A stretch of DNA of 64,000 bases from an uncultured Gemmatimonadales bacterium (GTDB lineage: Bacteria > Gemmatimonadota > Gemmatimonadetes > Longimicrobiales > RSA9), in contig CAWCRS010000008.1 of the NCBI GenBank assembly GCA_963798085.1, forward strand, positions 352,001 to 416,000, written 5' to 3'. Under the pieces are notes generated by a model. It had not been told where the DNA came from. It ran no database searches and worked only from the letters and a program-made list of their open reading frames with translations. Below are positions 29,502 to 50,797 of this stretch, piece after piece. The first letter of the stretch is position 1, and every line of letters starts with the position of its first letter. Both the position numbers and the translations under genes were made by a program.

Positions 29502-30497
29502 TCAGCGGACGATCTGGAACAGGGCGTCGACGTCCGGCGTGATCGCAGACAGACCACCGGCGGTGACGCCCCCGGCTATGGTCCGCTGCACACTGCGCAG
29601 CGCGGTGAGCACCGCGCTGCCGGCGCTGTCCGTGGCGTTGCCGAGTTTGTCGACCAGGGCATCCAGCTGCTTCGCCGCCTCGCCGTCCCGCGCGAAGTAG
29701 GCCGGCCGGTTCAGCCGCACGGCCATCGCGGCCTGCTCCGCCCAAAGTCCGATCTCGAACCAGGGCGCCGGAAACAGGCCGGGTGCGCCCGCGGCCGCTG
29801 CCTGCCATTCCCGGTGCCGACTTGCCGGTACGACGCCCGGTTGCGGCGGCACGGCTTCCGCTGCGGCGACCAGCGCGACCACGGGCGGGCTCAGTGGTGT
29901 GGCGGCGTCGAGCGTGCCGCGCAGGTCCCTGTCCGCGAGACGCATGGCCGGCGTGTCCGCCAGCTCCCACGCCACGCGCAGGTCCGTGAAGCGCACGCCC
30001 GCACGGAACCCCAGCTCCCGCGCGGGCGCCTCGGCGGCTGCACCGCTGCGCCTGGCCGGCACCCGCGTGCCGAGCCACGTCGAGTCGAACAGCGCCTGAA
30101 AGGAGCCTCGCCCGCCGGCCGACTGGATGCCGAGCGCGAACGCGCCGTTAGCCGTGTCGTGATGCCAGACCATCGGCGCCAGCCAGAACACGGCCAGCAC
30201 AGCCGCCGCCGCAGGCAGCAACACCTGCCAGCGCAGAAAGTGCGGGGGCTCCGGCATGACGGGGGATGGCGCACCCTGGCCTGCTGCAACCGGCACTGCG
30301 ATGCCCGCGGCTCGCAGCGCGGCCGCATCGGCAAACACTTCGTACAGCCCGGGTGAGCGCACGATCATCGCGGCCAGTTCCGCCCGCTTCGCTGGTGGCA
30401 GGCGATTCTCCAGGAATGCCGCCAGCAGCTCGAGATCGTCCTGCTCTTCGTCGCCATGCGCGACCGGCTCCAGATCGTCCTGTGGTTCGCTTGTCAC
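29502..30497 (-). CDS. Putative membrane-anchored anti-sigma factor (degenerate zf-HC2-like N-terminus)
   Basis: LLAAFLENRL..RAEL N-terminus, one TM helix; downstream of a sigma factor; paralogous to 39910-40852. Confidence 0.6.
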   Translation of the reverse strand: MTSEPQDDLEPVAHGDEEQDDLELLAAFLENRLPPAKRAELAAMIVRSPGLYEVFADAAALRAAGIAVPVAAGQGAPSPVMPEPPHFLRWQVLLPAAAAVLAVFWLAPMVWHHDTANGAFALGIQSAGGRGSFQALFDSTWLGTRVPARRSGAAAEAPARELGFRAGVRFTDLRVAWELADTPAMRLADRDLRGTLDAATPLSPPVVALVAAAEAVPPQPGVVPASRHREWQAAAAGAPGLFPAPWFEIGLWAEQAAMAVRLNRPAYFARDGEAAKQLDALVDKLGNATDSAGSAVLTALRSVQRTIAGGVTAGGLSAITPDVDALFQIVR

Positions 30498-30541
30498 AAC
30501 TGACTCCTCGGCTCGGTCCGGGGTCCGGGTCTCAGCTTAAG

Positions 30542-30565
30542 GACGGACATGAACCGTCGCCTTCG
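30542..30565 (-). promoter_or_regulatory. Putative ECF-type promoter (CGAA-N16-CGTC)
   Basis: Matches the motif upstream of 39910 and 44077; lies between sigma and anti-sigma genes. Confidence 0.35.
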
Positions 30566-30570
30566 CCCCA

Positions 30571-31362
30571 TCAGCGCACCCGTTCGTCATCGGACAGCAG
30601 CTCGCGCACGGTTTCCGCGTCCACACCATCCGCGCGCAGCAGCACGCGCAGCCGCTTCACAATGCGCTCCAGACGGCGGTACAACGGCTTGGCGGTGAGG
30701 TTCAACGCGCGCGCAATGTCAGGGATGTGCATGTGCTCCCACACCCTCAGACGAAGCAGTATCTGATCTTCATTCGGTAACTGTGCCATGGCCCGAGCCA
30801 GCTTCGCCTGCACGCGTTGCCACGCCTGCTGCCGCTCGTCTGACAGCACGCCGTCATCCGCATGATCCGGAGAGCACGCGTCCAGTGGCAGGGCACGATC
30901 GTGTTTGCGCGGATTCGCGTTGCGCGGCAACTGCGCGGCGAGTCGGCGCAGCTCGCCATCGGTCATGTTCACGCCGCGGCTGCGCAGCATCTCGATCGCC
31001 TGTTCCAGACCCATGCCCTCGCGCTCGAGGAGGGCCTGCAGCCGCACCGCGACGGGGCCCAGTCGCTTCGCTCCCGCCGATGGGCGCCAGCGGCCCAGCT
31101 GCTTGACGCGAAAATCGAGGTACAGGTGGGGAACGACCGTGCCCAGATAACCGAGCATTGTGGATTCGCCGCGGTGCTTGCGCAGTCTCGCGTAGTCGTT
31201 CTCGATCAGGCGTTCCTTCACGAATGACGCGAAGTCCTGCGCCTCGTCCGGATCGAGTCCGTGCCGGTGGGCGAGCGACGTCAGCAGCAGCTCGAGGCCT
31301 GGCAGTACGTCGAGGAGAACCTGAGCGGGATCGACGGGGTTCTCCGGGCTGGTGTCGGACAC
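30571..31362 (-). CDS. ECF-like sigma-70 factor with insertion between regions 2 and 4
   Basis: Region 2 (DEAQDFASFV..YLGTVV..YLDF), region 4 HTH (LPNEDQILLRL..IPDIARALNL..LYRRL); GTG start chosen at 31362. Confidence 0.8.
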   Translation of the reverse strand: MSDTSPENPVDPAQVLLDVLPGLELLLTSLAHRHGLDPDEAQDFASFVKERLIENDYARLRKHRGESTMLGYLGTVVPHLYLDFRVKQLGRWRPSAGAKRLGPVAVRLQALLEREGMGLEQAIEMLRSRGVNMTDGELRRLAAQLPRNANPRKHDRALPLDACSPDHADDGVLSDERQQAWQRVQAKLARAMAQLPNEDQILLRLRVWEHMHIPDIARALNLTAKPLYRRLERIVKRLRVLLRADGVDAETVRELLSDDERVR

Positions 31363-31731
31363 GCTCGGCGCGGCTCTCCGGTACCCGGGCCGGTTCTGCT
31401 GAAGAGCCGACCGTCCTCGCCACGCAGCGCCGCCTGACCCGGCCGCGCTGCCGGAACTGTGCCGCTCATAGTAGGCTCGCACACGCTTCGATGCGAGGGC
31501 GGGAGCCCGCCCGGCACGGACTCAGGCGAGAACGCGCTTCACCTTCCGGCGCTGCGCCGCCACCCGCGCCACCGCGCATCCGTCCCGGTCGCCAGAACGG
31601 CAATCCCGAAGTCGTTGCGTTCCGCCCCGTCAGCTTTCCATCATGAAGTCCGCGACCCGACTGGACCGTAGTGTCGAGTACGGTCTACTGGAACGGGCCG
31701 CATCTCCCAGCCTCCCGCACGGAGGAGTCCC

Positions 31732-35604: not shown

Positions 35605-35975
35605 CAGCGCGCCTCGCGCGGCTGCATGGGCCGCTGCCCCGCCAGCTCCAGCACCGCCCGCAGCCGCTCCAGCTCCGCCGTCACCACCGCCCGGCCCAGC
35701 GCCGTAATGCGATAGAACCGGCGGTCCCGACCCGGCGCCGGCCCGTCATCCGTCGCCCTCGCCTCCTCCATCAGCCCGTCCCGCTCCAGCCGGTGCACCA
35801 CCCGGTACAGCGAGCCCAGCTCCACACGCAGCGCACCGCCCGACTGCTCCTCCACCGCCTTCATCAGCGCGTAGCCGTGCAGCGGCGCCCGCGAAACGGC
35901 CAGCAGCAGCTGCAGGTCGGCGGGCGCCAGCGGCAGGAACGCGCGCGGGTCGGGCTGCTTTTTCCTGGCAGTCAC
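35604..35975 (-). CDS. PadR family transcriptional regulator
   Basis: HGYALMK, GSLYRVVHRLERDGL, RRFYRITALG; 1-nt overlap with the permease start. Confidence 0.9.
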   Translation of the reverse strand: MTARKKQPDPRAFLPLAPADLQLLLAVSRAPLHGYALMKAVEEQSGGALRVELGSLYRVVHRLERDGLMEEARATDDGPAPGRDRRFYRITALGRAVVTAELERLRAVLELAGQRPMQPREAR

Positions 35976-36866: not shown

Positions 36867-37102
36867 CAGCCGGCGCCACTGATTCTTCCCGCCGCGGCCT
36901 GCCTGTCCGGCCGCGGCGCTGGCTGCGGCCACTCCTCCGAGATGGCCGGCGGGATGCAGCTCTCGGTCTGGCGCTGTGACGCGCTGTGCAGCTACATCGC
37001 CTCAGCGGTGCGCCGCCGCGAGATCGCGGTGCCGAAAACTCTCGCGCGCGCCCGTCCAATCCCTTGTTCCATAATCCGCCACTCGAGGCCGAGAGGAATC
37101 TC

Positions 37103-38473
37103 ATGGACGCCATTCCTGTCAACTTCGTTCCCACCCCAACGAACAGTTATCGCAGTCATCGCAAGCTGATGCAGGCGACGGCCCAGCCGGGCCGGCCGAT
37201 TCTGCCCACGACGAAACCGCTGGCACCGCCCGTGCGCGGGCCACGCGCGCTCATCTGGAAGCAGGACCCGTCCGTCGCAGACATCGGCATCCGCAAGGTG
37301 TTTCTGCCCAACCTGTGCCTCGCCGGCCCGCGCGATGCGCGCATCATGAGCCAGGGGCTGCCCACCGTGAGTCCCAATGCAGACGGTGACTTCATCCAGA
37401 CGCCCGACACGGACGCTTTCAATGCAGTGCACACGTTCGCCGTGGTGCGCATGACACTGAATCTGGCGCAGCGGGCGCTGGCGGCGTTGAAGCATCCCAT
37501 GCCCTGGCAGTGGAGCACGCCGCAGGATGTTTCGCCGCTGCAGGTGTTCCCACACGGTCTGCCCGGCACCATGAACGCCTTCTATTCGCGGAATCAGCGT
37601 GCGCTCCGCTTCGGTGATTTCGACATGCCCGGCAGCAGGCCGCTGCAGCGCGTGTTCACCTGTCGCTCGTTCGACATCGTTTCGCACGAAACCGGGCACG
37701 CCATCCTGGACGGGCTCAAGCCGCAATGGCTGGACAACGGCAATCCCCCGCAGACAGGCGGCCTGCACGAGTCCTTCGGCGATCTGACTGCGATCTTCCT
37801 CACGCTCTCGCAGATGGACCAGGTGGAAGCGATCATCGCCTACACCAAGGCCGACCTCCACGCCAAGACGTTCCTGGCCGACATTGCCGAGCAGTTCGGC
37901 CTGGCGCTGGGCCGGCCCAACGGACTGCGCAACGCGGACAACGATCTGAAGCTGAGCGAAACCGGCACGGAGGTGCACGCCATCTCGCAGGTGTTCACCG
38001 GCGCTGTCTACGATGTGATGGCAGACATCTTCGATCACGAGTGCAGCATCAGCCGGGACGCCAAGGATCCGGCGCAGGTGCTCTTCGAGACCGCACGTTA
38101 TGTCTACAGCCTGCTGCTCCAGGGCATACTCGCCTCACCCGACCAGGGCGCGACCTTCGCCGACGTGGCGCGCGCCATGATCGATCACCTCACGGGCAAG
38201 GACAAGAAGCACGCGACCTATCGCGATTACATCTGGAAGCACTTCGCGGTGCGTGAGGTACTTTCCACCCAGGAGGCCAAACCGGGCATGCGCGCACCTG
38301 CTCGCCTCACCGCCGGCGTGCAGGACGCGGAAGACGCGGAACAGGATCGTCGCACATGCTGTGGCACCATGCGCCTCGGAGAATACCACGACGAGGAGAA
38401 GGCGCTGGCCGATGAAGCGAGACGATTCGCCGCCGCGCTGGGCGAGTTGCAGAGCAACGGGAACGGCCGTTAA
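37103..38473 (+). CDS. Zinc metallopeptidase, M4/M36 (thermolysin clan), no signal peptide
   Basis: NAFY, HETGH (HExxH), GGLHESFGD third ligand, EVH. Confidence 0.85.
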   Translation: MDAIPVNFVPTPTNSYRSHRKLMQATAQPGRPILPTTKPLAPPVRGPRALIWKQDPSVADIGIRKVFLPNLCLAGPRDARIMSQGLPTVSPNADGDFIQTPDTDAFNAVHTFAVVRMTLNLAQRALAALKHPMPWQWSTPQDVSPLQVFPHGLPGTMNAFYSRNQRALRFGDFDMPGSRPLQRVFTCRSFDIVSHETGHAILDGLKPQWLDNGNPPQTGGLHESFGDLTAIFLTLSQMDQVEAIIAYTKADLHAKTFLADIAEQFGLALGRPNGLRNADNDLKLSETGTEVHAISQVFTGAVYDVMADIFDHECSISRDAKDPAQVLFETARYVYSLLLQGILASPDQGATFADVARAMIDHLTGKDKKHATYRDYIWKHFAVREVLSTQEAKPGMRAPARLTAGVQDAEDAEQDRRTCCGTMRLGEYHDEEKALADEARRFAAALGELQSNGNGR

Positions 38474-38482
38474 GCTCCTGTC

Positions 38483-38779
38483 ATGAAACTGAACATTACG
38501 CAGTCGGGCGGGTTCGCCGGAATCACCGCGCCGCTGCTGGCGATCGATGGCGAGGCCCTCGACCCGGCACGCGCGCGCCAGCTGGAAGCACTCGTGCAGC
38601 AGGCGGATCTCGAGCAGCTCGCGGCGGCATCGTCGCAAACGAGGGGTGCGGACCTGTTGCACTACGCACTGGACATCGACACCCCCGAGGGCCACCGCCG
38701 CTTCCAGATCAGCGATGATGGCGGCCCGAATGCGGCCCGCTTCCACGCGTTTCTCGATCAGCTGAAGCGACTGCTCTGA
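38483..38779 (+). CDS. Emfourin-like (protealysin inhibitor) small protein
   Basis: MKLNITQSGGFAGI and GADLLHY motifs, 98 aa, directly after an M4-like protease. Confidence 0.75.
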   Translation: MKLNITQSGGFAGITAPLLAIDGEALDPARARQLEALVQQADLEQLAAASSQTRGADLLHYALDIDTPEGHRRFQISDDGGPNAARFHAFLDQLKRLL

Positions 38780-39014
38780 CTGCTAACAGCCTTACGTACA
38801 TGTGCGGACCGGTGCGCATCCGCTCGCCGGTCCGCACCTTTCGTTGTGCCCGCCCCGGCGGCCCTGTAAGTTGTGCGCGTTTCCGAGAATGACCCGACGC
38901 GGCAAACGAGGGGCTGCTACCCGGTAGCAGCAGCCCCGCACTACTGACGCGGGGGAGCTCCTGTCGAAAACCCGCTTGCGGGCGAAAAAACCGTCGTCGC
39001 TGACAGCGTTCGAG

Positions 39015-39821
39015 ATGCATCTGGAACCAGAGGCAGAAGGCATCGGACCGGACAGCTCGGAAGCAGGCGCACGACTCCTCGCCCATCTGGAGGACATCGA
39101 CAGCATCGCGGCCGCCATTGCGCGCCGTCATGCCCTCCGTCGTGAAGAGGCCGAGGAATTCACTTCCGCCGTGCATCTGAAGCTGACGCAGGATGATTGC
39201 GCCGTACTGCGCAAGTTCGAGCAGCGCGCGGCGCTGCGCACGTATCTCACCGCCGTCATCACCAACGTCTTCCGCGACTATCGCAATCAGCGCTGGGGTC
39301 GCTGGCGCAATTCCGTGGCGGCTCGCCGCAGGGGTCCGCTGGCGATGCGGCTCGAGACGCTGCTCTATCGCGACAGCTACACGCTGGCGCAGGCCGCGGA
39401 AATCCTGCGTGGAACGGAACTCAATGTGCCCGGCGATGCCGACCTCGCGCGGCTCGCTGCGATCTTGCCCGAGCGGCCCGGCACGTACGAAGTAGGCGAC
39501 AGCGCACTCGGCGGCGCCGTCGCACCGCAGGCTTCCGATGACGGTCTCTGGCTCACGGAGGCGGAGCGCGTGCAATCGGCGACCGAGCACGCGGTGGCAC
39601 GCGCTCTTGCCGCGCTGCCACATGAAGACCAGCTGATCGTGCGCATGCAGTATTTCGACAACATGACGGTAGCCGACATCGCGCGCACGCTGCACCTCGA
39701 CCAGAAGCCACTGTATCGCCGTTGTGAAGCGATCCGGCGTCAGGTACGCCGCGAGCTGGAGGCGCAGGGCCTCGGGGCGGACGTGGTGGCGAGGTATTTC
39801 GGCGACGAAGGGATGGCCTGA
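39015..39821 (+). CDS. ECF-like sigma-70 factor, paralog of 30571-31362
   Basis: EEAEEFTSAVHLKL..TYLTAVI..FRDY; shared GRWRxS..GPxAxRL insert; region 4 LPHEDQLIVRM..VADIARTLHL..LYRR. Confidence 0.82.
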   Translation: MHLEPEAEGIGPDSSEAGARLLAHLEDIDSIAAAIARRHALRREEAEEFTSAVHLKLTQDDCAVLRKFEQRAALRTYLTAVITNVFRDYRNQRWGRWRNSVAARRRGPLAMRLETLLYRDSYTLAQAAEILRGTELNVPGDADLARLAAILPERPGTYEVGDSALGGAVAPQASDDGLWLTEAERVQSATEHAVARALAALPHEDQLIVRMQYFDNMTVADIARTLHLDQKPLYRRCEAIRRQVRRELEAQGLGADVVARYFGDEGMA

Positions 39822-39822
39822 T

Positions 39823-39847
39823 GGAATTGTCACAGGCGATGGCCGTC
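39823..39847 (+). promoter_or_regulatory. Putative ECF-type promoter (GGAA-N17-CGTC)
   Basis: GGAATT..GGCCGTCC immediately after the sigma stop, upstream of the anti-sigma gene. Confidence 0.4.
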
Positions 39848-39909
39848 CAATCCCTCATGGAGTCCGCGCCGTGGGCTCCACCCGCAACCCCGGGCGCGGG
39901 AGAGGCCCT

Positions 39910-40852
39910 GTGAGCAGACCGAATAGACAGACTGTCGATCCGAATCGGCTGGCGGCTTTCCTCGACGGAACGCTGAGCGAGCTCGAACGGCAGGAGGTGA
40001 TGGCGGTCCTGGCCAGCTCGCCTGACGCCTACGAGCAGTTCGTGGAAACGGCGGCCGTGCTGAAGGACCTCGCCGCGACGCAGCCCGCGCCATCGCCTCT
40101 GCCGCGTCCGCGGCCGGTGTTCTCCAGAATGCCACGCTGGGCGCCCGTCCTGCTGGCGGCGACGCTCGCGGGCATTTTCTTCTGGGCGAGGTCGCTGCGC
40201 ACGCGGGCGGCGCCGGACACGGCCGCGCTGCTGGCGCTGGCGCCGGCACTCGGGCCCGCGAGCGGCAGTGGCAGTCTGCGTGCTCGCCTGGGCAATGACT
40301 GGGGAGCGCCGGGCTGGTCGGTGAATCGCGGTGCAGGCGACAACCTGAACCCGGATCAGCGCGCGTTCCGGCTGGGCGCGCGCGTGGCCGATCTCGAGAT
40401 CGCGGCGCGCATCGCGGATCCCGAGGCGATTCGCATTGCGGGCGCCGAGTTGCAGTCACTGGCACGCGCGGAAGTGGCCGGCTCGGTCATCGCCGAGCGC
40501 TACACAGCCATCATCGCGGGCAGCGCCTCGGCCGCTCCCGCCGCTGCGGCCGAGCGCGCCCGTGCGGCCGCGGATCTGCACAGCCTGCTGCAGAACTCAC
40601 CCTGGTTCGACCTCGGCATCTCGGATCGAGCACGCAAGGCTCGCCCTGCTCGCGGACGATCGCGTGTTCTTCGACGCGGGCGCGCCGCAGAACACGCTGC
40701 GGGCGCTGGAGAAGCAGGCGGGCAAGGCAGGTGCTAAGATAGCCCGCAATGTGCGGGCCTTCCTGGAAACGACACGCCTCGGCGGCGCCGCGGCGGAGCA
40801 CGACGCTCTGCGCGACCGCCTCGACGCCATCATCCTCGCCGCGGCGGGCTGA
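39910..40852 (+). CDS. Putative membrane-anchored anti-sigma factor; apparent +1 frameshift near 40622
   Basis: RLAAFLDGTL..ERQEV, TM helix, FRLGARVADL and WFDLGI(W)IEHA aligning with the paralog's FRAGVRFTDL and WFEIGLWAEQA. Confidence 0.6.
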
Positions 40853-43800
40853 GCGCCGCCGCACCGGCGGTTCGCTGCTGCTGCTCGCGCTGACCGCCTG
40901 TAACACAGCTGTTAGTGCGCCCACTGACGGCGCCGGCCCGCTGCTCGCGTCCGTACGGGATGCGCTCCGTGGCGACCGGCCCTTCGAGGCGATGCTCACG
41001 CCCGACTGGCTGCCCTGCGCACTCGCTCCCGATACGACACCCGGTGCTCCCGACATCCGCTGCCGCGCGCTGCCGCGGGAGCGCACGCTGACCCGTCTGA
41101 CGCACACCGCTCCGCGCATCCGCGCCGCGCTCAGCGACAGCAGTCCCGACGCACTGCGCTCGCTGGCGCTGCTCGAGAATGGCGACCGCCGGCAATGACC
41201 GGGCTACGCTGGAGCGCGCCGTCGGTCACCTCGAGGAAGCCGGCGCGGCCGGAGCAGGCCCATCGGCCGGTCTGCTGCACCAGCTCGCCATCGCGCAGGT
41301 GCTGCACGCGCACGCAGCGGAGGATGCGTTCGACCTGTTTCGCGCGCTCGACTCCATGGAGCGGGCCGCGGCCCTGGATTCAGGCGACGCAGCCATTCGC
41401 TTCGATCGCGCGCTGCTCCTGGATCATCTCGACCTCACACTCGAGGCGGCCACAGCGTGGAGCGCATACCTGACACGCGATTCGACCTCGCGCTGGGCCG
41501 CGGAAGCACGCGCCCACCGTGCGCGGCTGGACTCGCTGACATCGGCCGTGCGAGACCCCGCGCTGCAGCGCAACCCGCAGATCATCCGTGAGCAGGCAGA
41601 CTCCATGCTCGTGCGCTGGGCGCAGGCGACGCTCGCACACGACGCAGCCGGTGCCCGCGTGCTCCTGGCCGATGCGCTGGCCGCCGGCGAAAAACTGCAA
41701 GCCGCGCACGGCGACCGCAGCGTGCTGGATGCGGCGCAGGACCTGGCGGACGCGAGCGCCGCGCAGCAACGGCGCATGGCGGCCGGCCTCGCCGCATGGT
41801 CCGAGGGCCGTGCCCTCTACGGCGAGGCCAACTACGAGGCCGCCCGCCCGAACCTTGAACAGGCTGTTAGGGCGCTGGCGAACAGCAGCGCCCTTGCCGG
41901 GCCGGCCGGCCTGCTGCTGGCCGGCGTGGACTTCTACGCCGGACGCTATGCCGGCGCTGCGACCGTGCTGGACGTGCTGCGCCGCGCCCCGGATGCCACG
42001 CAGCATCTCTGGATCCGGGGCCGCGCCGAGTGGCTGGCGGGACTCATCGCGTTCAAGCAGGGCCGGCTGAACGCGGCACTCGCGCACTACGCGGCCGGCG
42101 CGGCGTTCTTCCAGCAGGCCGGCGAGACGCCCAGTCTCGCGGCCATGCTGGCGCTGCAGTCCGAGGCGAACTGGGAGTCGAGCCAGGAGCATCGCGGCAA
42201 TGCGCTGGCGGCTGCCTCCCTCGCGCAATTCCGCGCGTTTCCCATGCTTCCTGCGCGCTACAATCTGCTCGCTGTACTCAGCAACACGATGGCCGCCAGG
42301 GGATTGCCCGCCGCCGCCGTCCGCCTGAGCACGGAAGCGCTGCGCGTGGCCGCGCAGACTGGCCGACCGCAGGATGCCGTCGAAGCGCTGTCACGACTGG
42401 TGCGCGCCGAGCTGCGTGCGGGCTACGCGGACAGCGCAGCAGCGCACCTGCGCGCAGCGCGCAGCGCGCTCACCGCCGTGACTGACCGCGGCATGCACGA
42501 TCGCGTGGATGCCGAGCTGGCGCAGGCGGAGGCGGAGATGCAGCGCAACGTCGAGCCGCACCTGGCGCTGGCTGCGCTGTCGCGCGTCGTCGAACGTTTT
42601 CGCACGGAGCCGATCAGCCTGATCCCGGTGCTGCGCACGCGCGGCGAGGTGTCGCTCGGCAATGGCAATGAAGCGGGTGCGCGCGCCGATTTCGAGCGCG
42701 TGCTGGCACTGCTGCGCCAGCAGGCTGCCGATGCCCCGGACGCGGTGGATCGCGCCGCCTTGATCGAGTCCGGCAACACCGCGCTCGATGCACTGCTCGC
42801 CATCCACGTCGACCACGGCGAGGCCATGCAGGCGCTGGCGCTGCTGGAAGACACCCGTGCCGCCGCGTTCCGGCGGGACGCGGGACGCAGCATCGTCGCT
42901 TTGCATGAACCGGACCCCGCGCGTGCCGGGACCGGGTCCACGGACGCCGCGGACGCGACGCCACAGCCGCACCCGGATGAGGCCGTGCTCGAGTACGCGC
43001 TGCTGCCGGATCGGCTGCTCATCTGGGCGATCACCCGCGACAGCGTGGTGCTGCGCCAGGTGGCCCGCCCGCGCGCACTGCTGGAGGCCGCGATCCGGCG
43101 CCTGGACGTGCATCGCCGGCACGTCGAGGACTCGGCGGCGTTCACCCGGCTCGCCGCATCCCTGTACGACGCGCTCATTGCGCCCGTCGCGCCCGTGCTC
43201 GCGGGCTACCACCAGCTCGCCATCGTCGCCAATGGGGCACTGCAGCAGCTGCCCTTCGCCGCGTTGCGCAGCGCGCGCACCGGACGCTGGCTGATCGAGG
43301 ATTACGCGCTGCGCGGTGTGCCTACCGCCGGCTTCGCGCTGCAGGCGCAGTCCGATGCGAAGACAGCGCTGCGAAGCGCATTGCTGGTTGGTGATCCGGC
43401 CTTCAGCACGAGCGCCCTGCCCGATCTCGAGCCGCTGCGCGGTGCGCCGTCCGAGATCAGGCGTATCGCCAGCGACTACGCGCAAGCCGATACGCTGGTG
43501 CACGCGCAGGCCACGCGCGAGGCGCTGCTGCGCGCGCTGCCCGGCCACGACGTGCTGCACTTCGCGGGACACGCGCGCTACCGGCCGGACTCGCCCCGCC
43601 TCTCCTTCCTGGTGCTGGCGCCGTCGCCCGGCCTCTCCGATAATGGGCTGTTATACGCGCAGGACATCGGCCGCCTGGACCTGCGCGCTGTGCGGCTCGT
43701 GGTGCTCTCCGCCTGCTCCACGCTGGACGGCGGCTCGACACGCACCGCCGGCGCTGCGGCGCTGGCCCGCGCCTTCCTCGCCGCCGGCGTCCGCGGCGTC

Positions 43801-43992
43801 GTGGGCAGCCTGTGGGAGGTGCGTGATGTGCCCTCGACCGCTCTCATGATCGCGTTCCATCACTTCCTCGCGGACGGCGCGCCGCCGCCGCTCGCGCTGC
43901 AGTCTGCGCAGCGCGCAGCGCTGGCTTCGGACGATGCCGCGCTGCGTGATCCAGCCGCCTGGGCCGCGTTCCGCTTCGAGGGAGGCTGGTAA
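40848..43992 (+). CDS. TPR-CHAT (caspase-like cysteine protease) protein; N-terminal part in another frame (shift ~41178), start codon not identified
   Basis: TPR-like helices; ASLYDALIAP, LQQLPFAAL, catalytic HFAGH and VVLSAC, LARAFLAAG, SLWEV, WAAF; upstream frame has lipobox-like LLLLALTAC. Confidence 0.88.
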
Positions 43993-43995
43993 TCG

Positions 43996-44019
43996 GGAAG
44001 TTCGCGAGCCCTGGCCGTC
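43996..44019 (+). promoter_or_regulatory. Putative ECF-type promoter (GGAA-N16-CGTC)
   Basis: GGGAAG..GGCCGTCT upstream of the SD and ATG of the 44077 gene. Confidence 0.4.
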
Positions 44020-44076
44020 TATTCGGGAAACACACATTTCGCCCACACCGCGCCGCACGCGCGCAGGAGACCCTGG

Positions 44077-44925
44077 ATGGCCACCGATCTCAGCTTCTTC
44101 GGCATCTGCCTCTTCGTCTGGGAATCGAATCGCCTGCGTATCCTGTTGCCCAACGCCACCAGCCCGTCCGGCGCTACGCACCCGGACAAGACCAAACCCA
44201 ACGTGGCGAATGTGCACATGCCTCGCCTTTATCTCGAGGGTCCGAACTCCACCGTGGCCGTCAACCTGAACGGCCATCGCGTCACCATTGATGGCGGAGC
44301 GGGCAAGCCCACGCGGGGTGGCGTGGTCGAAATGATCGGCATCGGCCAGTTCGCGGAGAACATCGAGTTGCGCACCAATGCGACGGCGGGAAGGCCCTCG
44401 CTGGTGGCGGGTGAGGTCATCGTCACGGGCGGCACGCTGAGCACACGGCGCAGCGCGCCGCAGGCCACGTATCGCTTCAATCAGTCGCTGCGCAGCCACA
44501 ACTACGAGCTGACCGCGCCCTCCTGCTCGCTGCTCTGGTCACACTCGGGCACTGTCACCATCAGCGTGCACGCGGATCCGAAAGACCCCAACGGTGATCA
44601 GTACATTCTGGCGCAGGGACCCTACCGCGTGGTGATCGGCAACGTGTGCAACAACCCCATGCCAGCCACCTGGGAATGCGAGGAAGTGTCGTTTCCGCCC
44701 GGCTCCAACGTGCCGGACGAAGACTTCAAGTGGCTGTACCACATGTTCAAGCCCGCCGGCACCAGGCGCTGGAGCGATCTGCTGAAGGGGAAGGAACTGC
44801 CTGTGCCGGAAGCGATCGTGGCCCCGGCCGCCGCCGTCGCCAGCATCAGTGGCGAAGCAAGCATGGGTACGACGTCGTCGTGTTTTCCCGGTGAGTGGTG
44901 TCCGCCGAACGGACCCTGTCCGTAA
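44077..44925 (+). CDS. Hypothetical protein with Cys/Pro-rich C-terminal tail, CHAT-associated
   Basis: AGGAGA SD; 282 aa, beta-rich appearance; ends SSCFPGEWCPPNGPCP. Confidence 0.7.
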   Translation: MATDLSFFGICLFVWESNRLRILLPNATSPSGATHPDKTKPNVANVHMPRLYLEGPNSTVAVNLNGHRVTIDGGAGKPTRGGVVEMIGIGQFAENIELRTNATAGRPSLVAGEVIVTGGTLSTRRSAPQATYRFNQSLRSHNYELTAPSCSLLWSHSGTVTISVHADPKDPNGDQYILAQGPYRVVIGNVCNNPMPATWECEEVSFPPGSNVPDEDFKWLYHMFKPAGTRRWSDLLKGKELPVPEAIVAPAAAVASISGEASMGTTSSCFPGEWCPPNGPCP

Positions 44926-45011
44926 GCGGGCATTTGGCGCCGGGCCCCGCCCCGCGATCGGATTTCGCGACCGCGGAAAGCGCTGCAGCTGTGATGCCCG
45001 CCAGCCCTCAG

Positions 45012-45051
45012 CGGGAGGCAGCCCTCCCCGGGTGTTGCCTCCCGGCTTTTT
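45012..45051 (+). terminator. Intrinsic terminator closing the sigma/anti-sigma/CHAT operon
   Basis: CGGGAGGCAGC ... GTTGCCTCCCG stem followed by GCTTTTT. Confidence 0.6.
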
Positions 45052-45068
45052 CTCGACGGGCGTGCAGC

Positions 45069-46259
45069 CTACTGCGTGGGCGCGGGCTGAAACTCACCGC
45101 AGAGATTGAGCGCCACCGTCTGCAGCACGAGCTGCCTGGCGCGCTCCACGATATCATCGATCAATGGCGTGTTCGCGAACATGTTGCGCGCGCGACGACG
45201 CATCTCATCGACGCTCGGGATGTGCGGCAGCTGCATCTCCGCCAGCATGGCGGCCGCCTGTGAGCGGGCCGACACCATCCGGCTCTGCAGCTCGGGGAAG
45301 TGCGGCATGTGCGTGAGCGCTTCACGCACCTGCGAGGTGATGCGGTCGACAGGGAAGCTCTCCGCCAGCTGGTGTGCCACCTTTTCGATCGTGGCACGCC
45401 CGAGGCGATGCTCGTTGCGCACCACTTCGACCGGTGGCTCCCCGAGGTCCCACACGATGCCCAGCCAGGACAGCACCTTGAGCGTGTAGAACGTCACGTC
45501 GATTTCCCACCAGCGGAAGCCCTGCCGCGTCGAGCGCTGATACGCATGATGGTTGTTGTGCCAGCCCTCGCCCATGGTGAAGAACGCCAGCAGCCAGTTG
45601 TTGCGCGAGTCGTCGCCGGTCACGTAACGCTGCTTGCCGTAGACGTGCGCCAGCGAGTTGATCATGAAGCTGCCGTGATAGAGCAGTACCGTGCTCCAGA
45701 AGAAGCCCACGATCAGGTACGGCCAGCCACCCAGCAGGAAGATCAGCAGCGCCAGAGCGAACGGTACGACATACTGATGCCGGTCCAGCCACTGCAGCTC
45801 GGGGTACTGCGCCAGATCCTGCACCAGCGAGTAGTCCGTCTCACCGTGCCGCGGTGTGAAAATCCAGCCCACATGCGAGTACAGAAAGCCGCGATGCCGC
45901 GGCGAGTGCACATCCATTTCGGTATCAGAAAAACGATGATGATGACGGTGCTTCGCCGCCCACCACAACACGCCGCGCTGCGCCGCCGTCTGCGTCATCA
46001 CGGCGAGCACGAACTGACCGGCCCGGCTCGTCTTGAACGAGCGATGCGAGAAGTAGCGATGGAATCCCGCCGTCACCGCGATCATGCGGACGACGTAGAG
46101 CGCTACGCACAACAGCACCGCGCCCGCCGGCACGCCCGTCCAGATGGCGGCAAAGCAGGCAAGGTGCACCAGCAGGAATGGAATCGTCGCGGGGTAAATA
46201 ATGTCGTCGTGATCGTCCACTTCCGGGTCAGTGGACGGCGCGACCAGCACATCGGACAT
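45069..46259 (-). CDS. Membrane fatty acyl (delta-9-like) desaturase
   Basis: His boxes HRYFSH, HRHHH, HNNHH; INSLAH; TM segments. Confidence 0.92.
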   Translation of the reverse strand: MSDVLVAPSTDPEVDDHDDIIYPATIPFLLVHLACFAAIWTGVPAGAVLLCVALYVVRMIAVTAGFHRYFSHRSFKTSRAGQFVLAVMTQTAAQRGVLWWAAKHRHHHRFSDTEMDVHSPRHRGFLYSHVGWIFTPRHGETDYSLVQDLAQYPELQWLDRHQYVVPFALALLIFLLGGWPYLIVGFFWSTVLLYHGSFMINSLAHVYGKQRYVTGDDSRNNWLLAFFTMGEGWHNNHHAYQRSTRQGFRWWEIDVTFYTLKVLSWLGIVWDLGEPPVEVVRNEHRLGRATIEKVAHQLAESFPVDRITSQVREALTHMPHFPELQSRMVSARSQAAAMLAEMQLPHIPSVDEMRRRARNMFANTPLIDDIVERARQLVLQTVALNLCGEFQPAPTQ

Positions 46260-46573
46260 GAAGGTCCCTTTTTCGCGGGGGCGCGGTGCGCGCCAGTACA
46301 GTCGGGGGCGACGGTAACCTCGAAACCTAGCCGGCTGGCCGGCCGAACTCAAGCCGGATCGTGATTTCCGGGGCGCATTTGTCGCAAAACGCCCGGTCGG
46401 GTCGAACCACGGGCGAACAGGGTTGCGCCGCAGTCGAGCCGCGCGACGCCGGCGCACTCGCCACTGCTACCCGCCCCGCGTTATGCTGGCACCGACTCAC
46501 GCAAACGCGGAAGGGCACAGCACATGGCACTCGCACAGGCAGTCAGCGCCCGCGCTCCTGGCCGGGCAGTCTG

Positions 46574-47785: not shown

Positions 47786-48127
47786 ATGAGCCCGAGAAGC
47801 GGCGTGTCCGTCACGCCACAGGTGTTCCAGATCATGCTGTCGCTGGCCGGCGGCGACCTGCACGGCTACGCGCTGATGCAGGACATCGAGCAGCGCACGG
47901 ATGGCGAGGTGACGCTGACCGCGAGTACGCTGTACGGCGCCATCCGGCGCATGCGGGATGCCGGCTGGATCGAAGAACGCAGCACGGATGACGCGGATGA
48001 GCGGCGGCGTGTGTACCGGCTGACACGCGCGGGCCGGGTCGCGGCCGGCGAAGAAGCGGTGCGGCTGGAGGCCATGGCGCGCGAGGCCAGGCGCCGTCGC
48101 CTGTTTCCTTCCCCTCGCCGGTCCTGA
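47786..48127 (+). CDS. PadR family transcriptional regulator
   Basis: HGYALMQ, STLYGAIRRM, RRRVYRLT. Confidence 0.9.
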   Translation: MSPRSGVSVTPQVFQIMLSLAGGDLHGYALMQDIEQRTDGEVTLTASTLYGAIRRMRDAGWIEERSTDDADERRRVYRLTRAGRVAAGEEAVRLEAMAREARRRRLFPSPRRS

Positions 48128-48136
48128 GGAGGCCAA

Positions 48137-50797
48137 ATGCGCAACGCGCTGCGGTGGCTGTGCGCGCTGTGGATCCGCGCGCTGGTGCGCTGCCTGCCGC
48201 CATCGTTCCGTGCGGCGTACGGCAGGGAAATCGTGGCACTGTATCGCGCGTCGCAGGGCGGGAGCGCGGGCACTGCCGCCGTGCTGCGTCGCTTTGTGCG
48301 CGAGCTGGGCAGTCTGCTGCGGCTGCTGGTTCGGGAGTGGGGCACAGCGCTGGCCGCGGTGCTGCACGGGGCGCGGCGGGCGCCATGGCTGCTCGACGCC
48401 CGCCATGTGGCGCGTACACTCGCGCGCTCGCGCGCCTACGCGATTGCAGTCGTGAGCACGCTGGCGCTGGGCATCGCCGGGCTGGCGGCGCTCAGCGTCG
48501 TGGTGCGGATCACGTTGCTGCGTCCGCTGCCCTATGCAGCGCCGGGCCAGCTGGTGCGCATCGTGGAAAACGCGCACGGTGCCTACAGCGGCGAGACGAC
48601 ATCACTGCCCAACATGGTGGCGTGGCAGGAGCGCGTGCACACGCTCGAGCACATTGCCGCGGTTTCCGCCGGTGGCGGCGTCAATGTGAGTCTGGGCGAG
48701 CGGACGGTTCGCGTCCGCTCGGCGCAGGTATCCGCGGAGACGTTCGCGCTGCTGGGTGTGCAGCCGCTGCGGGGCGGGGTTCTCGTCGGTGATGATTTCA
48801 AGCCGGGCGGTGCGCGCCGCGTCGTGCTCAGTCATGGGTTCTGGCAGCAGTTCCTGGGCGCGGACACGACGATCATCGGGCGCACGCTGCGCATCAATGG
48901 CGCGCCCGTCGAGGTGGCGGGCGTGATGCCTGCCGGCTTCTCCTTTCCCGACGGCACCACCGCGCTGCTGCTGCCCCTGCAGATAACACCGGGTTTGGGC
49001 CTGGCGTCGCCCAATGGCCGCTGGGCGAGGCTGTTCCAGGCGTACGGCCGCGTGCGCGCGGGAGGGACGCTGCAGAGCGCGGCACGCGAGCTGGCGGTGG
49101 TGTCGGCGGACCTGCAGCGCGAGTTCGGGCCGCCCAACGAAGGGATGCGTGCGCGGCCCCTGCCGCTGGCGGACACCATGATGGGCAGCTCTCGCCGGCT
49201 GATCGAGCTGCTCACGGGGGCGGCCGTCATCGTGCTGCTGGTCGCCTGCAGCAACATCGTCGCGCTGACAGCCGTGCGCGCAGCGCAGCGGCGCCGGGAA
49301 CTGGCCATCCGCATGGTTCATGGCGCGACGCGCGGCGCGGCACTGCGCCTGTTCGGCCTGGAGCTGGCTGTCCTGGGCGTGGTGGGCACGAGCGTCGGCG
49401 CCTGGCTCGCGGTGCTGCTGGGACCCGCAGCCAGCCGGCTGATCCCCAATGCGCTGCCGCACGCGCCGCTGCGCGTCCCGGAGCTGCTGGCCAGTGCCTC
49501 ACTCCTGGGCGCGCTGACGGTGATGTTCCTGCTGCTGGGTCTGCTGCGTTCGCCGGTGGCAGCCGCGGCACTTTCGCAGGCCGTGAGCGGAGGCACGCGT
49601 ACCACCATGAACCGGCACCAGCGGCGCTGGCGCAGTCTGATGGTCGCCGGACAGATCGCGGCCGCCATCACACTGCTCATCGCAGCCGCCGCGCTGGTGC
49701 GCAGCTTCCTCGGCGTGGTGCGCACACCCACCGGATTCCAGCCCCAGGGCATCGTCACCATGGCTGTGAATCCCGGATTCATGCAGCCGGCGCAACTCGA
49801 GCAGTTCTACGCAACGCTGGAAGCGCAGGTGCGAGTGCTGCCCGGTGTGCAGGGACTGGGCATGGTGGACGGCCCGCCGCTCTCGGGGGGCGGCATCGGG
49901 TGGACCTACGTGCCGGAAGGAAATGGCATTGCGGGCGGGCAGGAGCCGGCTGCCACAACGCATCTGATCGACGACGACTATCCTTCCACCATCGGCATCC
50001 CGCTGCTGGCAGGCCGGCTGCTGCAAGCCGCCGACACGTTCGCGCAGGCGCCCGGTGTGCTGGTGAGCGCGACACTCGCGCGCGCCAGCTTCGGCACGCC
50101 GGCTGCGGCCGTCGGCGGTCGCATCACGCTGGGCAGCGTGAGCTCCGGCAACGTGCCCATGACGATCGTGGGCGTCCTCGGGGATGTGCGCGACGGTTCC
50201 CTGCGTGATCCGCCCGGCTCTCTCATCTATCAACGCTACGCCGCGTCGACCCCGAGCAGCCGCATGGTGCTGGTGGTGCGCGCGGACGGCAATGCCAGTG
50301 AGCTGGCCGCCCGCGTGCAGACCATCGTCCGGGCGCTGAATCCGGACGTCCCCATATCCAGCGTGCGCGCCCTTGATGCCATTGTGGCCGACGCCGCCGC
50401 GCGCGAGCGCGTGACCGCCGCCATCGCCGGGGCGCTGGGCGCGCTCACTCTGCTCCTCGCCGCGGTGGGAATCACAGGACTGTTCGGCCAGCTCGTCATG
50501 GACCGCCAGCGCGCGCTCGCCATTCGCCTGGCCATGGGTGCCACACCGGCACGCGTCATCGGGGAAACCCTGGGCAGCGCCCTGCTCATCATCAGCGCCG
50601 GCGCTGCGCTCGGCCTGGGCGCGGCGCTGGCCCTGCGCGGCGTACTGCGCCCCTTCCTGGTGCGCGCCGCGCCCTTCGACGCCGGCGCCGCGGCCCTGAC
50701 TATCCTGCTGTTAGGCGGCATCGGCCTGCTGGCGGCGCTCATCCCCGCCCTGCGCAGCACGCGCCGTTCCCCGCTGCGCGCACTGGCCGGCGACTGA
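48137..50797 (+). CDS. ABC transporter permease, duplicated MacB/FtsX (ADOP-type, divergent)
   Basis: LPPSFRAAYGREI prefix, TLALGI, LLVACSNI, RELAIR, AIRLAMGA, SPLRAL. Confidence 0.85.
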   Translation: MRNALRWLCALWIRALVRCLPPSFRAAYGREIVALYRASQGGSAGTAAVLRRFVRELGSLLRLLVREWGTALAAVLHGARRAPWLLDARHVARTLARSRAYAIAVVSTLALGIAGLAALSVVVRITLLRPLPYAAPGQLVRIVENAHGAYSGETTSLPNMVAWQERVHTLEHIAAVSAGGGVNVSLGERTVRVRSAQVSAETFALLGVQPLRGGVLVGDDFKPGGARRVVLSHGFWQQFLGADTTIIGRTLRINGAPVEVAGVMPAGFSFPDGTTALLLPLQITPGLGLASPNGRWARLFQAYGRVRAGGTLQSAARELAVVSADLQREFGPPNEGMRARPLPLADTMMGSSRRLIELLTGAAVIVLLVACSNIVALTAVRAAQRRRELAIRMVHGATRGAALRLFGLELAVLGVVGTSVGAWLAVLLGPAASRLIPNALPHAPLRVPELLASASLLGALTVMFLLLGLLRSPVAAAALSQAVSGGTRTTMNRHQRRWRSLMVAGQIAAAITLLIAAAALVRSFLGVVRTPTGFQPQGIVTMAVNPGFMQPAQLEQFYATLEAQVRVLPGVQGLGMVDGPPLSGGGIGWTYVPEGNGIAGGQEPAATTHLIDDDYPSTIGIPLLAGRLLQAADTFAQAPGVLVSATLARASFGTPAAAVGGRITLGSVSSGNVPMTIVGVLGDVRDGSLRDPPGSLIYQRYAASTPSSRMVLVVRADGNASELAARVQTIVRALNPDVPISSVRALDAIVADAAARERVTAAIAGALGALTLLLAAVGITGLFGQLVMDRQRALAIRLAMGATPARVIGETLGSALLIISAGAALGLGAALALRGVLRPFLVRAAPFDAGAAALTILLLGGIGLLAALIPALRSTRRSPLRALAGD

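Follow-up and report, generated by a model that had tools for sequence, protein, structure and literature searches.

The locus at 39015-45052 of the window, the 64,000-nucleotide stretch from an uncultured Gemmatimonadales bacterium analysed here, probably encodes the DdvS/DdvA switch in a two-protein form conserved among soil bacteria: CHAT would cut the anti-sigma, RseP would follow and the freed sigma would transcribe a set of genes. Its four open reading frames, all on the forward strand, encode an ECF-type sigma, an anti-sigma, a TPR-CHAT protease and a protein that we name FX from its start, F-x-G-[LI]-C. The original prediction of four co-oriented genes closed by a terminator is borne out by the positions of the reading frames and by a hairpin with a U-tract. 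Upstream, the unit probably reaches to a metalloprotease-emfourin pair (37103-38779), which a probable terminator divides from the sigma gene. The features are:

37031..37059, + strand: promoter-like site GAAA-N15-CCGTCCAA, 72 nt 5' of the metalloprotease start (score 17.1, the window maximum)
37103..38473, + strand: leaderless zinc metalloprotease of protealysin-type arrangement (PF02128, Peptidase_M36, E 2e-4, under the cut-off)
38483..38779, + strand: emfourin, a metalloprotease inhibitor (PF20242, E 4.5e-14)
38802..38838, + strand: strong hairpin followed by CUUUCGUU, the probable terminator (z -3.9 over 38780-38880; 0/200 shuffles equally stable)
39015..39821, + strand: ECF-type sigma (TIGR02937, 56.3 bits, cut-off 42.9)
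39821..39850, + strand: promoter-like site before the anti-sigma, and hence before the CHAT gene too (score 14.5)
39910..40852, + strand: single-pass anti-sigma, from GTG 39910 to TGA 40852, with one frameshift near 40623 (profile matches in two frames)
40315..40332, + strand: W-S-V-N-R-G motif, its Arg codon at 40327 being the candidate cleavage site (conservation, modelled loop)
40851..41178, + strand: N-terminal part of TPR-CHAT with a lipoprotein-type signal, Cys codon 40899 and a Cys pair (sequence)
41179..43992, + strand: TPR region and CHAT domain, His 43570, Cys 43714 and Asp 43825, with a frameshift at the 5' junction (PF12770, E 2.6e-56)
43994..44022, + strand: promoter-like site 83 nt 5' of the FX gene (score 12.8)
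44077..44925, + strand: FX, a leaderless beta-rich protein of 282 aa with a Cys-bearing tail after a variable linker (sequence, structure model)
45005..45052, + strand: terminator-like hairpin and U-tract (z -2.3; 2/200 shuffles equally stable)
29502..31368, - strand: paralogous sigma/anti-sigma pair without a CHAT gene (37% and 31% identity)

The closest known system appears, from profile comparison, to be DdvS/DdvA of Myxococcus xanthus rather than Craspase. DdvA (8ROT) was the best natural match of the CHAT family profile in the PDB (E 7.7e-31), while the chains named 'CHAT domain protein', which we take to be Csx29, matched at about 5e-6; two CHAT proteins used singly as PDB queries did not retrieve DdvA. 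The original prediction had taken Csx29/Csx30 as its model, and this holds in so far as a TPR-CHAT protease would act on a sigma-binding protein, as in Craspase (type III-E Csx29/Csx30/CASP-sigma), but the match to DdvA is far stronger. Csx29 is cytoplasmic and is activated by RNA-bound Cas7-11, whereas a hydrophobic N-terminal segment is present in all 34 split relatives of the protease described here. Craspase also has no membrane anti-sigma, and here no cas gene was found among the 115 neighbour ORFs scanned. With DdvS/DdvA the locus shares an ECF sigma, a single-pass anti-sigma, a periplasmic TPR-CHAT region (a predicted location here), the His/Cys dyad and a CHAT-then-RseP release that is proposed in both; the DdvS promoter, GTAA-n16-CGT (PMC6061681), resembles the motif found here, and a gene of unknown function follows ddvA. 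It differs in that anti-sigma and protease are encoded by separate genes, so that TPR-CHAT is not on the anti-sigma chain, in that the protease carries its own export signal, and in that the anti-sigma lacks the CHCC zinc ligands, which the fused Acidobacteriota forms do have in a zinc domain, and has its own periplasmic bundle. CBASS, like cas genes, was not seen among the 115 neighbour ORFs, and many myxobacterial pairs of the DdvS/DdvA type are likewise without CBASS or CRISPR neighbours (PMC11506125). The phyla differ as well: DdvA-like proteins were found only in Myxococcota and one Comamonas (PMC11506125), while the relatives named here belong to Gemmatimonadota (split) and Acidobacteriota (fused).

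The His/Cys dyad claimed to be intact is indeed there (HFAGH at 43558, LSAC at 43705), and the catalytic His, Cys and Asp are retained in 54/54 family domains. The lipoprotein-like N-terminus suspected in the upstream frame was found as well: RRRTGGSLLLLALTA-C lies in the frame upstream of the CHAT ORF, and among the 34 split relatives with a hydrophobic N-terminal segment, 21 have a lipobox by pattern. CHAT is predicted from these features to be exported and extracytoplasmic. Against PADLOC, the protease gave a single partial match, in the CHAT region (BovA).

Conservation of the gene set was assessed in the 38 loci, out of 55 fetched, that had at least 6 kb downstream. A separate anti-sigma was present in 31, CHAT in 33, FX in 26 and all four genes in 23, so that the four-gene linkage, which the original prediction had left to a neighbourhood survey, is conserved; the order of the genes differs between loci, the set is constant. 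CHAT is missing from the fetched flank in five loci, and three of the 33 CHAT matches (L086, L092 and L093) may be unrelated neighbours. FX escaped detection by profile in 7/33 CHAT loci and never occurred without CHAT (26/26 FX loci have it). In Acidobacteriota, fusion proteins comprising zf-HC2, TM, TPR and CHAT parts follow the same sigma family, usually with FX next; in Thermoanaerobaculia, likewise, the sigma is followed by a fused DdvA-type protein and then FX, with 4 to 11 sigma copies per genome of this type. A quick tree of the CHAT domains, 54 in all, unites 14 of the 15 fused rows (support 91) but does not tell whether fusion or fission came first. The source genome (G000) also holds an orphan CHAT-FX locus without a sigma (C3), as well as an RseP-family gene over the cut-off. 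Genes with a PF00656 caspase domain adjoin 11 loci (12 of the 115 neighbour ORFs), and the neighbouring proteases vary between loci. The linkage, together with the N-terminal signals, supports the proposal of a CRISPR-independent, protease-gated ECF switch with a predicted extracytoplasmic CHAT enzyme. The genome's one cas1 match lies on another contig (C7), with no clear promoter link. A metagenome scan returned three short loci, ending short of the anti-sigma/CHAT junction, and a literature search, mostly of papers outside subscription, found nothing on the split form or FX.

Where would the anti-sigma be cut? The sigma has a conserved insertion between sigma2 and sigma4 with a GRW(R)xSxAA motif (alignment of 16 relatives), and its partner has a hydrophobic stretch at about 40138-40188. 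The zf-HC2 match of the anti-sigma is weak (E 0.014, under the cut-off), and the HxxxCxxC zinc ligands are absent from it and from the split homologues. An AlphaFold model of an intact homologue (L075) consists of a zinc-less three-helix domain, a TM helix and a periplasmic helical bundle, with generic helical bundles as its only fold matches (best Z 7.5). The Arg of W-S-V-N-R-G is invariant in 36/36 split anti-sigmas, is followed by G in 29, S in six and A in one, and sits in the loop 141-155 of the model. Fused proteins have an Arg 7-8 residues past the linker Trp in 15/15 examined, by a linker pattern designed to find an Arg. In the corresponding region of the split proteases there is instead a Cys pair (33/34), an aromatic-x-Arg-small motif occurring in only 1/34. 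Because the Arg is kept in split anti-sigmas and fused linkers, with a Cys pair in its stead in the split proteases, it likely marks the cut site for CHAT; it could instead be structural. The CHAT protease HetF of Anabaena cuts PatU3 between R117 and S118 (PMC9457339), that is, after an Arg and before a small residue, as shown for HetF. HetF, however, governs cell division and heterocysts, and its substrate is not an anti-sigma.

The promoter-like motif, GRGAA[AT]-N15/16-CC[GA]TCYAA, precedes the anti-sigma, the FX gene and the metalloprotease-emfourin pair. The promoter matrix was built from 10 FX upstream regions, and with a matrix for which only other genomes served as training data, the three top-scoring sites of the window all lie 72-89 nt 5' of starts in this locus. 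In the locus of the closest relative (L125), a site stands at the same place before FX (score 22.4). Across 54 other loci, 12 sites are divergent from the sigma (0.43 expected) and eight precede the anti-sigma at the same position (0.19 expected), in zones picked after an earlier look at the results and in related loci that are not independent. A first matrix found sites in 5/20 other FX upstream regions at p<=0.05, one of them nearly identical to a training locus, and in 1/34 sigma upstream regions, so that autoregulation of the sigma gene through the motif is unsupported. We infer that the locus sigma reads the motif, although another ECF could do so; the site at 37031 is likely recognised by this sigma, which would likely make the metalloprotease, in which no signal peptide was seen, a regulon member. 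With 77 sites scoring at least 12.5 in the source genome, the motif is too common for defining a genome-wide regulon. A scan for sigma-70 promoters gave 0 sites, and the CHAT-less paralogous pair has a weak promoter-like site at 30567, 5' of its anti-sigma. A link between the motif and the cas1 region was considered and dropped: there are several middling sites, the best at an apparent IS end.

FX belongs to a family of about 2,560 clusters (E<=0.001) that matches no family in Pfam or NCBIfam. The conserved residues here are His47, Asn189, Asp216 and Cys269; His47 is found in 157/157 aligned sequences and Cys269 in 156/157, and positions 189/216 are mostly H/H (95) or N/D (38). Cys11 is 94% conserved in the near family and missing in several Acidobacteriota members, and this loss in distant members weakens it as a catalytic residue. 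Of the 140 proteins bearing G-[LMIV]-C, 130 have it within their first 20 residues, so that FX carries no signal peptide. As it also has a promoter-like site of its own, it is more probably a cytoplasmic protein induced by the sigma than an exported CHAT substrate, a role once considered for it that these features speak against. The tail fares no better as a substrate: an [RK][GSA] pair falls within the 12 residues ahead of the Cys in only 61/156 tails (background 17%), and the tail of this locus lacks one. In the structure model (pLDDT 84.8, pTM 0.87) the tail forms strands that pack against the core. When CHAT residues 225-937 were co-folded with FX, no solution emerged (score 0.00), which speaks neither for nor against binding. 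Foldseek against the PDB returned nothing at E<=0.001 and VIA-align against 48,161 chains a best Z of 2.4, neither of which establishes a novel fold; viral structures gave no match at E<=0.001, the FX profile had one match among PDB sequences (E 1.2), two FX proteins had no usable match in the ESM Atlas, and PADLOC had none for FX. Gasdermins, which share its size, Cys and protease neighbours, were considered, but none was listed among the fold matches. FX is joined behind a trypsin-like protease in P0099 and apparently in P0151.

Taken together, the findings are probably best explained by the following relay. TPR-CHAT, as a lipoprotein predicted to lie outside the inner membrane, would be held at rest by analogy to DdvA (PDB 8ROT, 8RW5), whose dyad is misaligned at rest and for which neither cleavage has been demonstrated nor a signal is known (PMC11506125). 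A protein or peptide cue might bind the TPR region, upon which CHAT would cut the anti-sigma loop between the Arg and Gly of W-S-V-N-R-G, a site suggested by conservation. RseP would then cut the TM helix, as demonstrated for truncated DdvA, and the sigma would read the GRGAA[AT]-type promoters. Additional anti-sigma and protease would reset the system, while FX and the leaderless proteases would be its output. FX is a candidate enzyme, effector or missing signal, and its step is the weakest of the scheme; tentatively, it may be a cytoplasmic His/Cys-site enzyme or a metal-site protein whose tail folds on the core, from which a protease induced together with FX could free it. By analogy, the purpose is likely a response to biological attack.

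It is rather improbable that TPR-CHAT instead shields the periplasmic domain of the anti-sigma, as RseB/MucB does, or cuts another periplasmic target, with the Arg serving docking or structure and another site-1 protease freeing the sigma. In DdvA, TPR-CHAT sterically blocks RseP and dyad mutants still repress (PMC11506125), and the source genome has a pair without an adjacent CHAT; however, the catalytic residues are intact throughout the family, the Arg goes with the anti-sigma half while a Cys pair replaces it in the split protease, and the orphan CHAT-FX locus of the same genome could serve the CHAT-less pair. A somewhat better, though still unlikely, alternative keeps the relay but makes FX the source of the cue: FX, or its Cys-bearing tail peptide, would escape by lysis or export and engage the TPR region on kin cells, giving a positive feedback comparable to an alarm signal or autoinducer. 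FX is CHAT's one constant companion, following fused and split forms and the orphan CHAT, and it stays where the neighbouring proteases change. It is also the most variable member (mean identity over 15 pairs 0.29, against 0.33 for TPR, 0.36 for the anti-sigma, 0.42 for the CHAT domain and 0.51 for the sigma), and most Acidobacteriota tails end in C-[ST]-N-[ST]-x-[YFW]-P behind a variable linker. Yet FX lacks an export signal and would not share a compartment with CHAT, the modelled tail strands (pLDDT 74-82) fit a structural or catalytic element, and many loci transcribe FX away from the sigma, with a caspase gene and not with CHAT. A full alarm loop, in which the sigma switches on FX together with cytoplasmic proteases, and FX or its tail, set free from damaged or lysing cells, activates kin TPR-CHAT so that the R-G cut spreads the response, strikes us as doubtful and marginally more so. 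If true, each sigma paralogue would form a channel of its own, and the trigger missing so far for DdvA-type anti-sigmas would be FX.

The intactness of this copy also bears on the two-protein reading. Two breaks, near 40623 and near 41179, each amount to one surplus base; at the former, positions 123-218 of the anti-sigma profile fall in one frame and 230-300 in the next. Both single-base frameshifts are probably assembly errors, since the source genome has a background of similar breaks (5 frameshift joints in 46.9 kb of conserved genes). That the family is real but the window copy decayed, with both frameshifts genuine, is a minor possibility compatible with the other alternatives: two breaks within 6 kb, neither covered by any of the read pieces listed, and a CHAT start that is not evident mean that this copy could be a pseudogene. 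The start is uncertain, with no canonical codon between the stop at 40852 and the signal, and the nearest in-frame ATG, 40749, overlapping the anti-sigma. However, the break rate of the genome predicts about 0.65 per 6 kb, in-frame stops are absent, and catalytic residues and promoter-like sites are intact. Far less probable still is a single DdvA-like fusion split merely by sequence errors, as the original prediction had allowed. Three +1 frame steps in succession speak for it, and the family does include fused forms, in Acidobacteriota, where that part of the idea stands. For this locus it is already largely refuted. The stop at 40852 is genuine, as a run contig covers 40811-40963 with 0 gaps and 1 differing letter and homologous anti-sigmas terminate at the equivalent position; therefore, anti-sigma and protease are encoded separately. 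CHAT carries a signal of its own, the junction recurs, with a TTG start, in a same-genus locus (L033), and in split forms the two genes often converge or lie at a distance from each other. Moreover, two hydrophobic segments in one chain would return CHAT to the cytoplasm.

CHAT-driven cleavage of the anti-sigma is the unproven step in DdvA, for which no trigger has been identified and in which a single chain is both enzyme and substrate (PMC11506125). The split form offers a separate enzyme and substrate, a named candidate scissile bond (R-G) and candidate promoters, and this cleavage is therefore directly testable. The fused homologues widen DdvA-type anti-sigmas to Acidobacteriota, abundant in soil and often with many copies per genome, and FX, whose family counts thousands of clusters and has no curated model, is tied to the switch in two phyla. 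ECF54 sigmas are likewise encoded near TPR-CHAT proteins and subtilases, but the accessible part of the source describes them only from Actinobacteria and without a putative anti-sigma (PMC7826278), whereas a membrane anti-sigma is present here. The pair at 37103-38779 resembles the protealysin-emfourin operon, where the gene of a leaderless metalloprotease precedes that of its inhibitor, emfourin (PMC9505478, whose accessible part mentions no sigma control); here the protease matches only M36, weakly, and is preceded by the promoter-like motif.

The four genes at 39015-45051 make up a real, conserved and apparently unpublished version of a known type of signalling system. As the original prediction held, all four open reading frames lie on the forward strand and a terminator-like hairpin ends the unit:

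39015-39821 (+), ECF-type sigma factor
39910-40852 (+), predicted membrane anti-sigma factor
up to 43992 (+), TPR-CHAT protease
44077-44925 (+), fourth protein, with a Cys-bearing tail, of an unnamed family (FX)
45069-46457, convergent toward the terminator, fatty acid desaturase (PF00487)
29502-31368 (-), paralogous sigma/anti-sigma pair without a CHAT gene

Two further gene pairs (32929-35975 and 47786-50797), each taken to join a PadR-like gene to an ABC-permease-like one, flank the region on either side. The sigma factor passes TIGR02937 (56.3 bits, cut-off 42.9) and the CHAT domain is recognised at E 2.6e-56. The anti-sigma and CHAT genes each carry one frameshift, with one excess base near 40623 and near 41179, respectively. 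Since conserved genes elsewhere in the source genome show five joints of similar kind in 46.9 kb, these two breaks in 6 kb fit a putative assembly error. The stop at 40852 falls where the anti-sigma homologues terminate, and a run contig, from what may be the source sample itself, crosses it without a gap.

Matches to the sigma factor occur in 12 of 61 related genomes (the source genome counted, two matches being weak), and scanning a single genome from each species yielded at least 55 loci, chiefly from Gemmatimonadota and some from Acidobacteriota. Linkage was counted in the 38 with at least 6 kb downstream. Among the loci listed, a separate anti-sigma gene is present in 31 of 38, a CHAT gene in 33, and FX in 21 by a first profile and 26 by a wider one, so that the predicted four-gene linkage is indeed conserved. 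Among the same listed loci, no CHAT gene was found in the flank of five, and FX never occurs without CHAT (0/38); in three short loci outside this set (L059, L066 and L067) FX is present and the contig stops before any CHAT gene could be seen. Six loci (L023, L033, L054, L057, L068 and L070) repeat the gene order of the window, while in others CHAT is convergent and FX lies downstream of CHAT or is directed away from sigma. L081, a locus from an unpublished genome (G061), contributes a single row to the counts of at least 55 loci, 38 loci, 15 fused proteins and 54 CHAT proteins; none of our conclusions rests on that row. A DDE transposase gene separates the anti-sigma gene from a convergent FX gene in L029 (4780-5823).

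In Acidobacteriota, genes of the same sigma family precede a single protein with zf-HC2, a transmembrane (TM) segment, TPR and CHAT, the architecture of DdvA, the anti-sigma factor of the Myxococcus xanthus DdvS/DdvA pair; a Pfam run on four such fused proteins found zf-HC2 in three. FX homologues also lie downstream of the fused genes. Since fused forms share both the sigma family and FX, the conserved core comprises sigma, an anti-sigma domain, TPR-CHAT and FX, with the fusion in one phylum and the split arrangement in the other. A profile built from 28 CHATs of the family matches 8ROT (E 7.7e-31), the PDB entry of DdvA (PMC11506125), and homology to DdvA is thereby shown. The window locus probably resembles DdvS/DdvA in its working, yet it is no strict member because it has neither a fused chain nor the zinc site. 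In the DdvA paper, DdvA-like proteins are reported only from Myxococcota and one Comamonas (PMC11506125), and none of the papers listed by our literature searches dealt with the split form or with FX. The locus offers a candidate cut site and a candidate promoter that can both be tested, and its partner family is large and uncharacterised. In four other genomes (G062-G065, loci L105-L124), which hold 6 to 11 matches each to the window's sigma family, many of these precede a fused DdvA-type protein and an FX gene whose product ends in C-x-N-x-x-[YFW]-P.

The candidate cut site emerges from an alignment of 36 split anti-sigmas with just two invariant columns, one of them holding the Arg in the motif W-x-x-x-R-[GSA], some 40 residues past the TM helix; it recurs in a 39-row alignment, and a structure model of a homologue (L075) predicts that it sits in an inter-helix loop. 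The matching linker position holds Arg in 15 of 15 fused proteins examined, and the corresponding region of the split proteases has a cysteine pair in 33 of 34 and a similar Arg motif in one of 34, so the Arg travels with the anti-sigma half. The split proteases are predicted to be exported: the N-terminal segment is hydrophobic in all 34, and a pattern search finds a lipobox in 21. The intact catalytic dyad originally claimed for CHAT was borne out, its His and Cys, together with the Asp of W-x-V-x-D, being retained in 54/54 domains. The anti-sigma is likely cleaved at R|G, the cut of the CHAT protease HetF being R117|S118 (PMC9457339), and an RseP step would follow: an RseP-family gene is present in the source genome, and DdvA is reported to be degraded by RseP after TPR-CHAT removal (PMC11506125). 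Against this reading, the same report treats CHAT cleavage of DdvA as unproven (PMC11506125).

Ten FX genes directed away from sigma have in common GAA-N16/17-C[GC][AT]C, about 100-125 nt upstream. A first matrix, trained on these ten regions alone, found 12 sites directed away from sigma (0.43 expected) and eight between sigma and anti-sigma (0.19 expected) in 54 other loci, although the P values are overstated since the zones were set after the hits had been seen and kin are not independent. It was significant ahead of only 5/20 other FX genes and 1/34 sigma genes. A second matrix, built from 29 sites outside the source genome, gives seven window sites scoring at least 8, and the top three (37031, 39821 and 43994) each lie 72-89 nt upstream of a start in the locus; a weaker site precedes the paralogous anti-sigma gene. 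Loci added later show the pattern again, with sites scoring 22.4 ahead of FX (L125) and 26.8 ahead of a fused gene (L123), although 7/20 Acidobacteriota loci have none scoring 10 or more. The motif is position-linked in these loci. It is probably recognised by the sigma factor of the locus; the DdvS promoter is given as GTAA-n16-CGT (PMC6061681). Among the genes downstream of such sites are those of caspase-domain proteins, that of a kumamolisin-type subtilase in L083 and, in the window, that of a metalloprotease with emfourin, a metalloprotease inhibitor. The locus may serve a defensive purpose. A very high-scoring site (24.8) in L091 (3506-4970) precedes a caspase-domain gene and a small protein, presumably TIR-like, 5 kb from the switch; the small protein has no Pfam or PADLOC match.

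The fourth protein matches no Pfam or NCBIfam family, and two FX alignments, one with 15 members and one with 24, yielded sub-threshold family matches at most. The FX profile reaches 2,560 clusters (50% identity) at E<=0.001 and 1,324 at 1e-10. Across the 157 members aligned, His47 and Trp154 never vary and 156 keep Cys269, while positions 189/216 read H/H in 95, N/D in 38 and N/H in 18. Its sequence has no predicted signal peptide. The model shows a confident beta-rich domain (pLDDT 84.8, pTM 0.87); the linker is of low confidence, and the tail with its Cys is docked. A trypsin-like protease domain is fused ahead of FX in P0099, where a trypsin domain is matched, and apparently in P0151. The His/Cys conservation, the missing leader, the docked tail and the trypsin fusion fit an enzyme or a metal site whose own tail gates it, which is our best reading of its role. 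Alternatively, FX might supply the cue for the switch, a reading kept alive by its constant pairing with CHAT and its high variability.

Elsewhere in the source genome, an orphan CHAT-FX-subtilase locus without sigma (C3:250387-255944, -) lies on a different contig from the window and could be a partner in trans of the CHAT-less pair at 29502-31368. Short elements (about 27-34 nt), often tandem and like the promoter motif, occur at C9:94639, C3:256252-256320, C3:788848, C3:789200, C3:366430 and C3:1032351, and one cluster directly precedes the orphan CHAT gene. ECF sigmas of a second class also adjoin TPR-CHAT genes (C3:32845-36866, C2:102945-107090 and C8:211970-216322); the proteases there bear a signal at the N-terminus and are hydrophobic at the C-terminus, and the anti-sigma on C3 carries a V-M-R-S motif past its TM helix. 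The sole cas1 match of this genome lies in a 613-aa frame (C7:198300-205400), adjoined by an element that we presume, from its sequence, to be of IS21 type.
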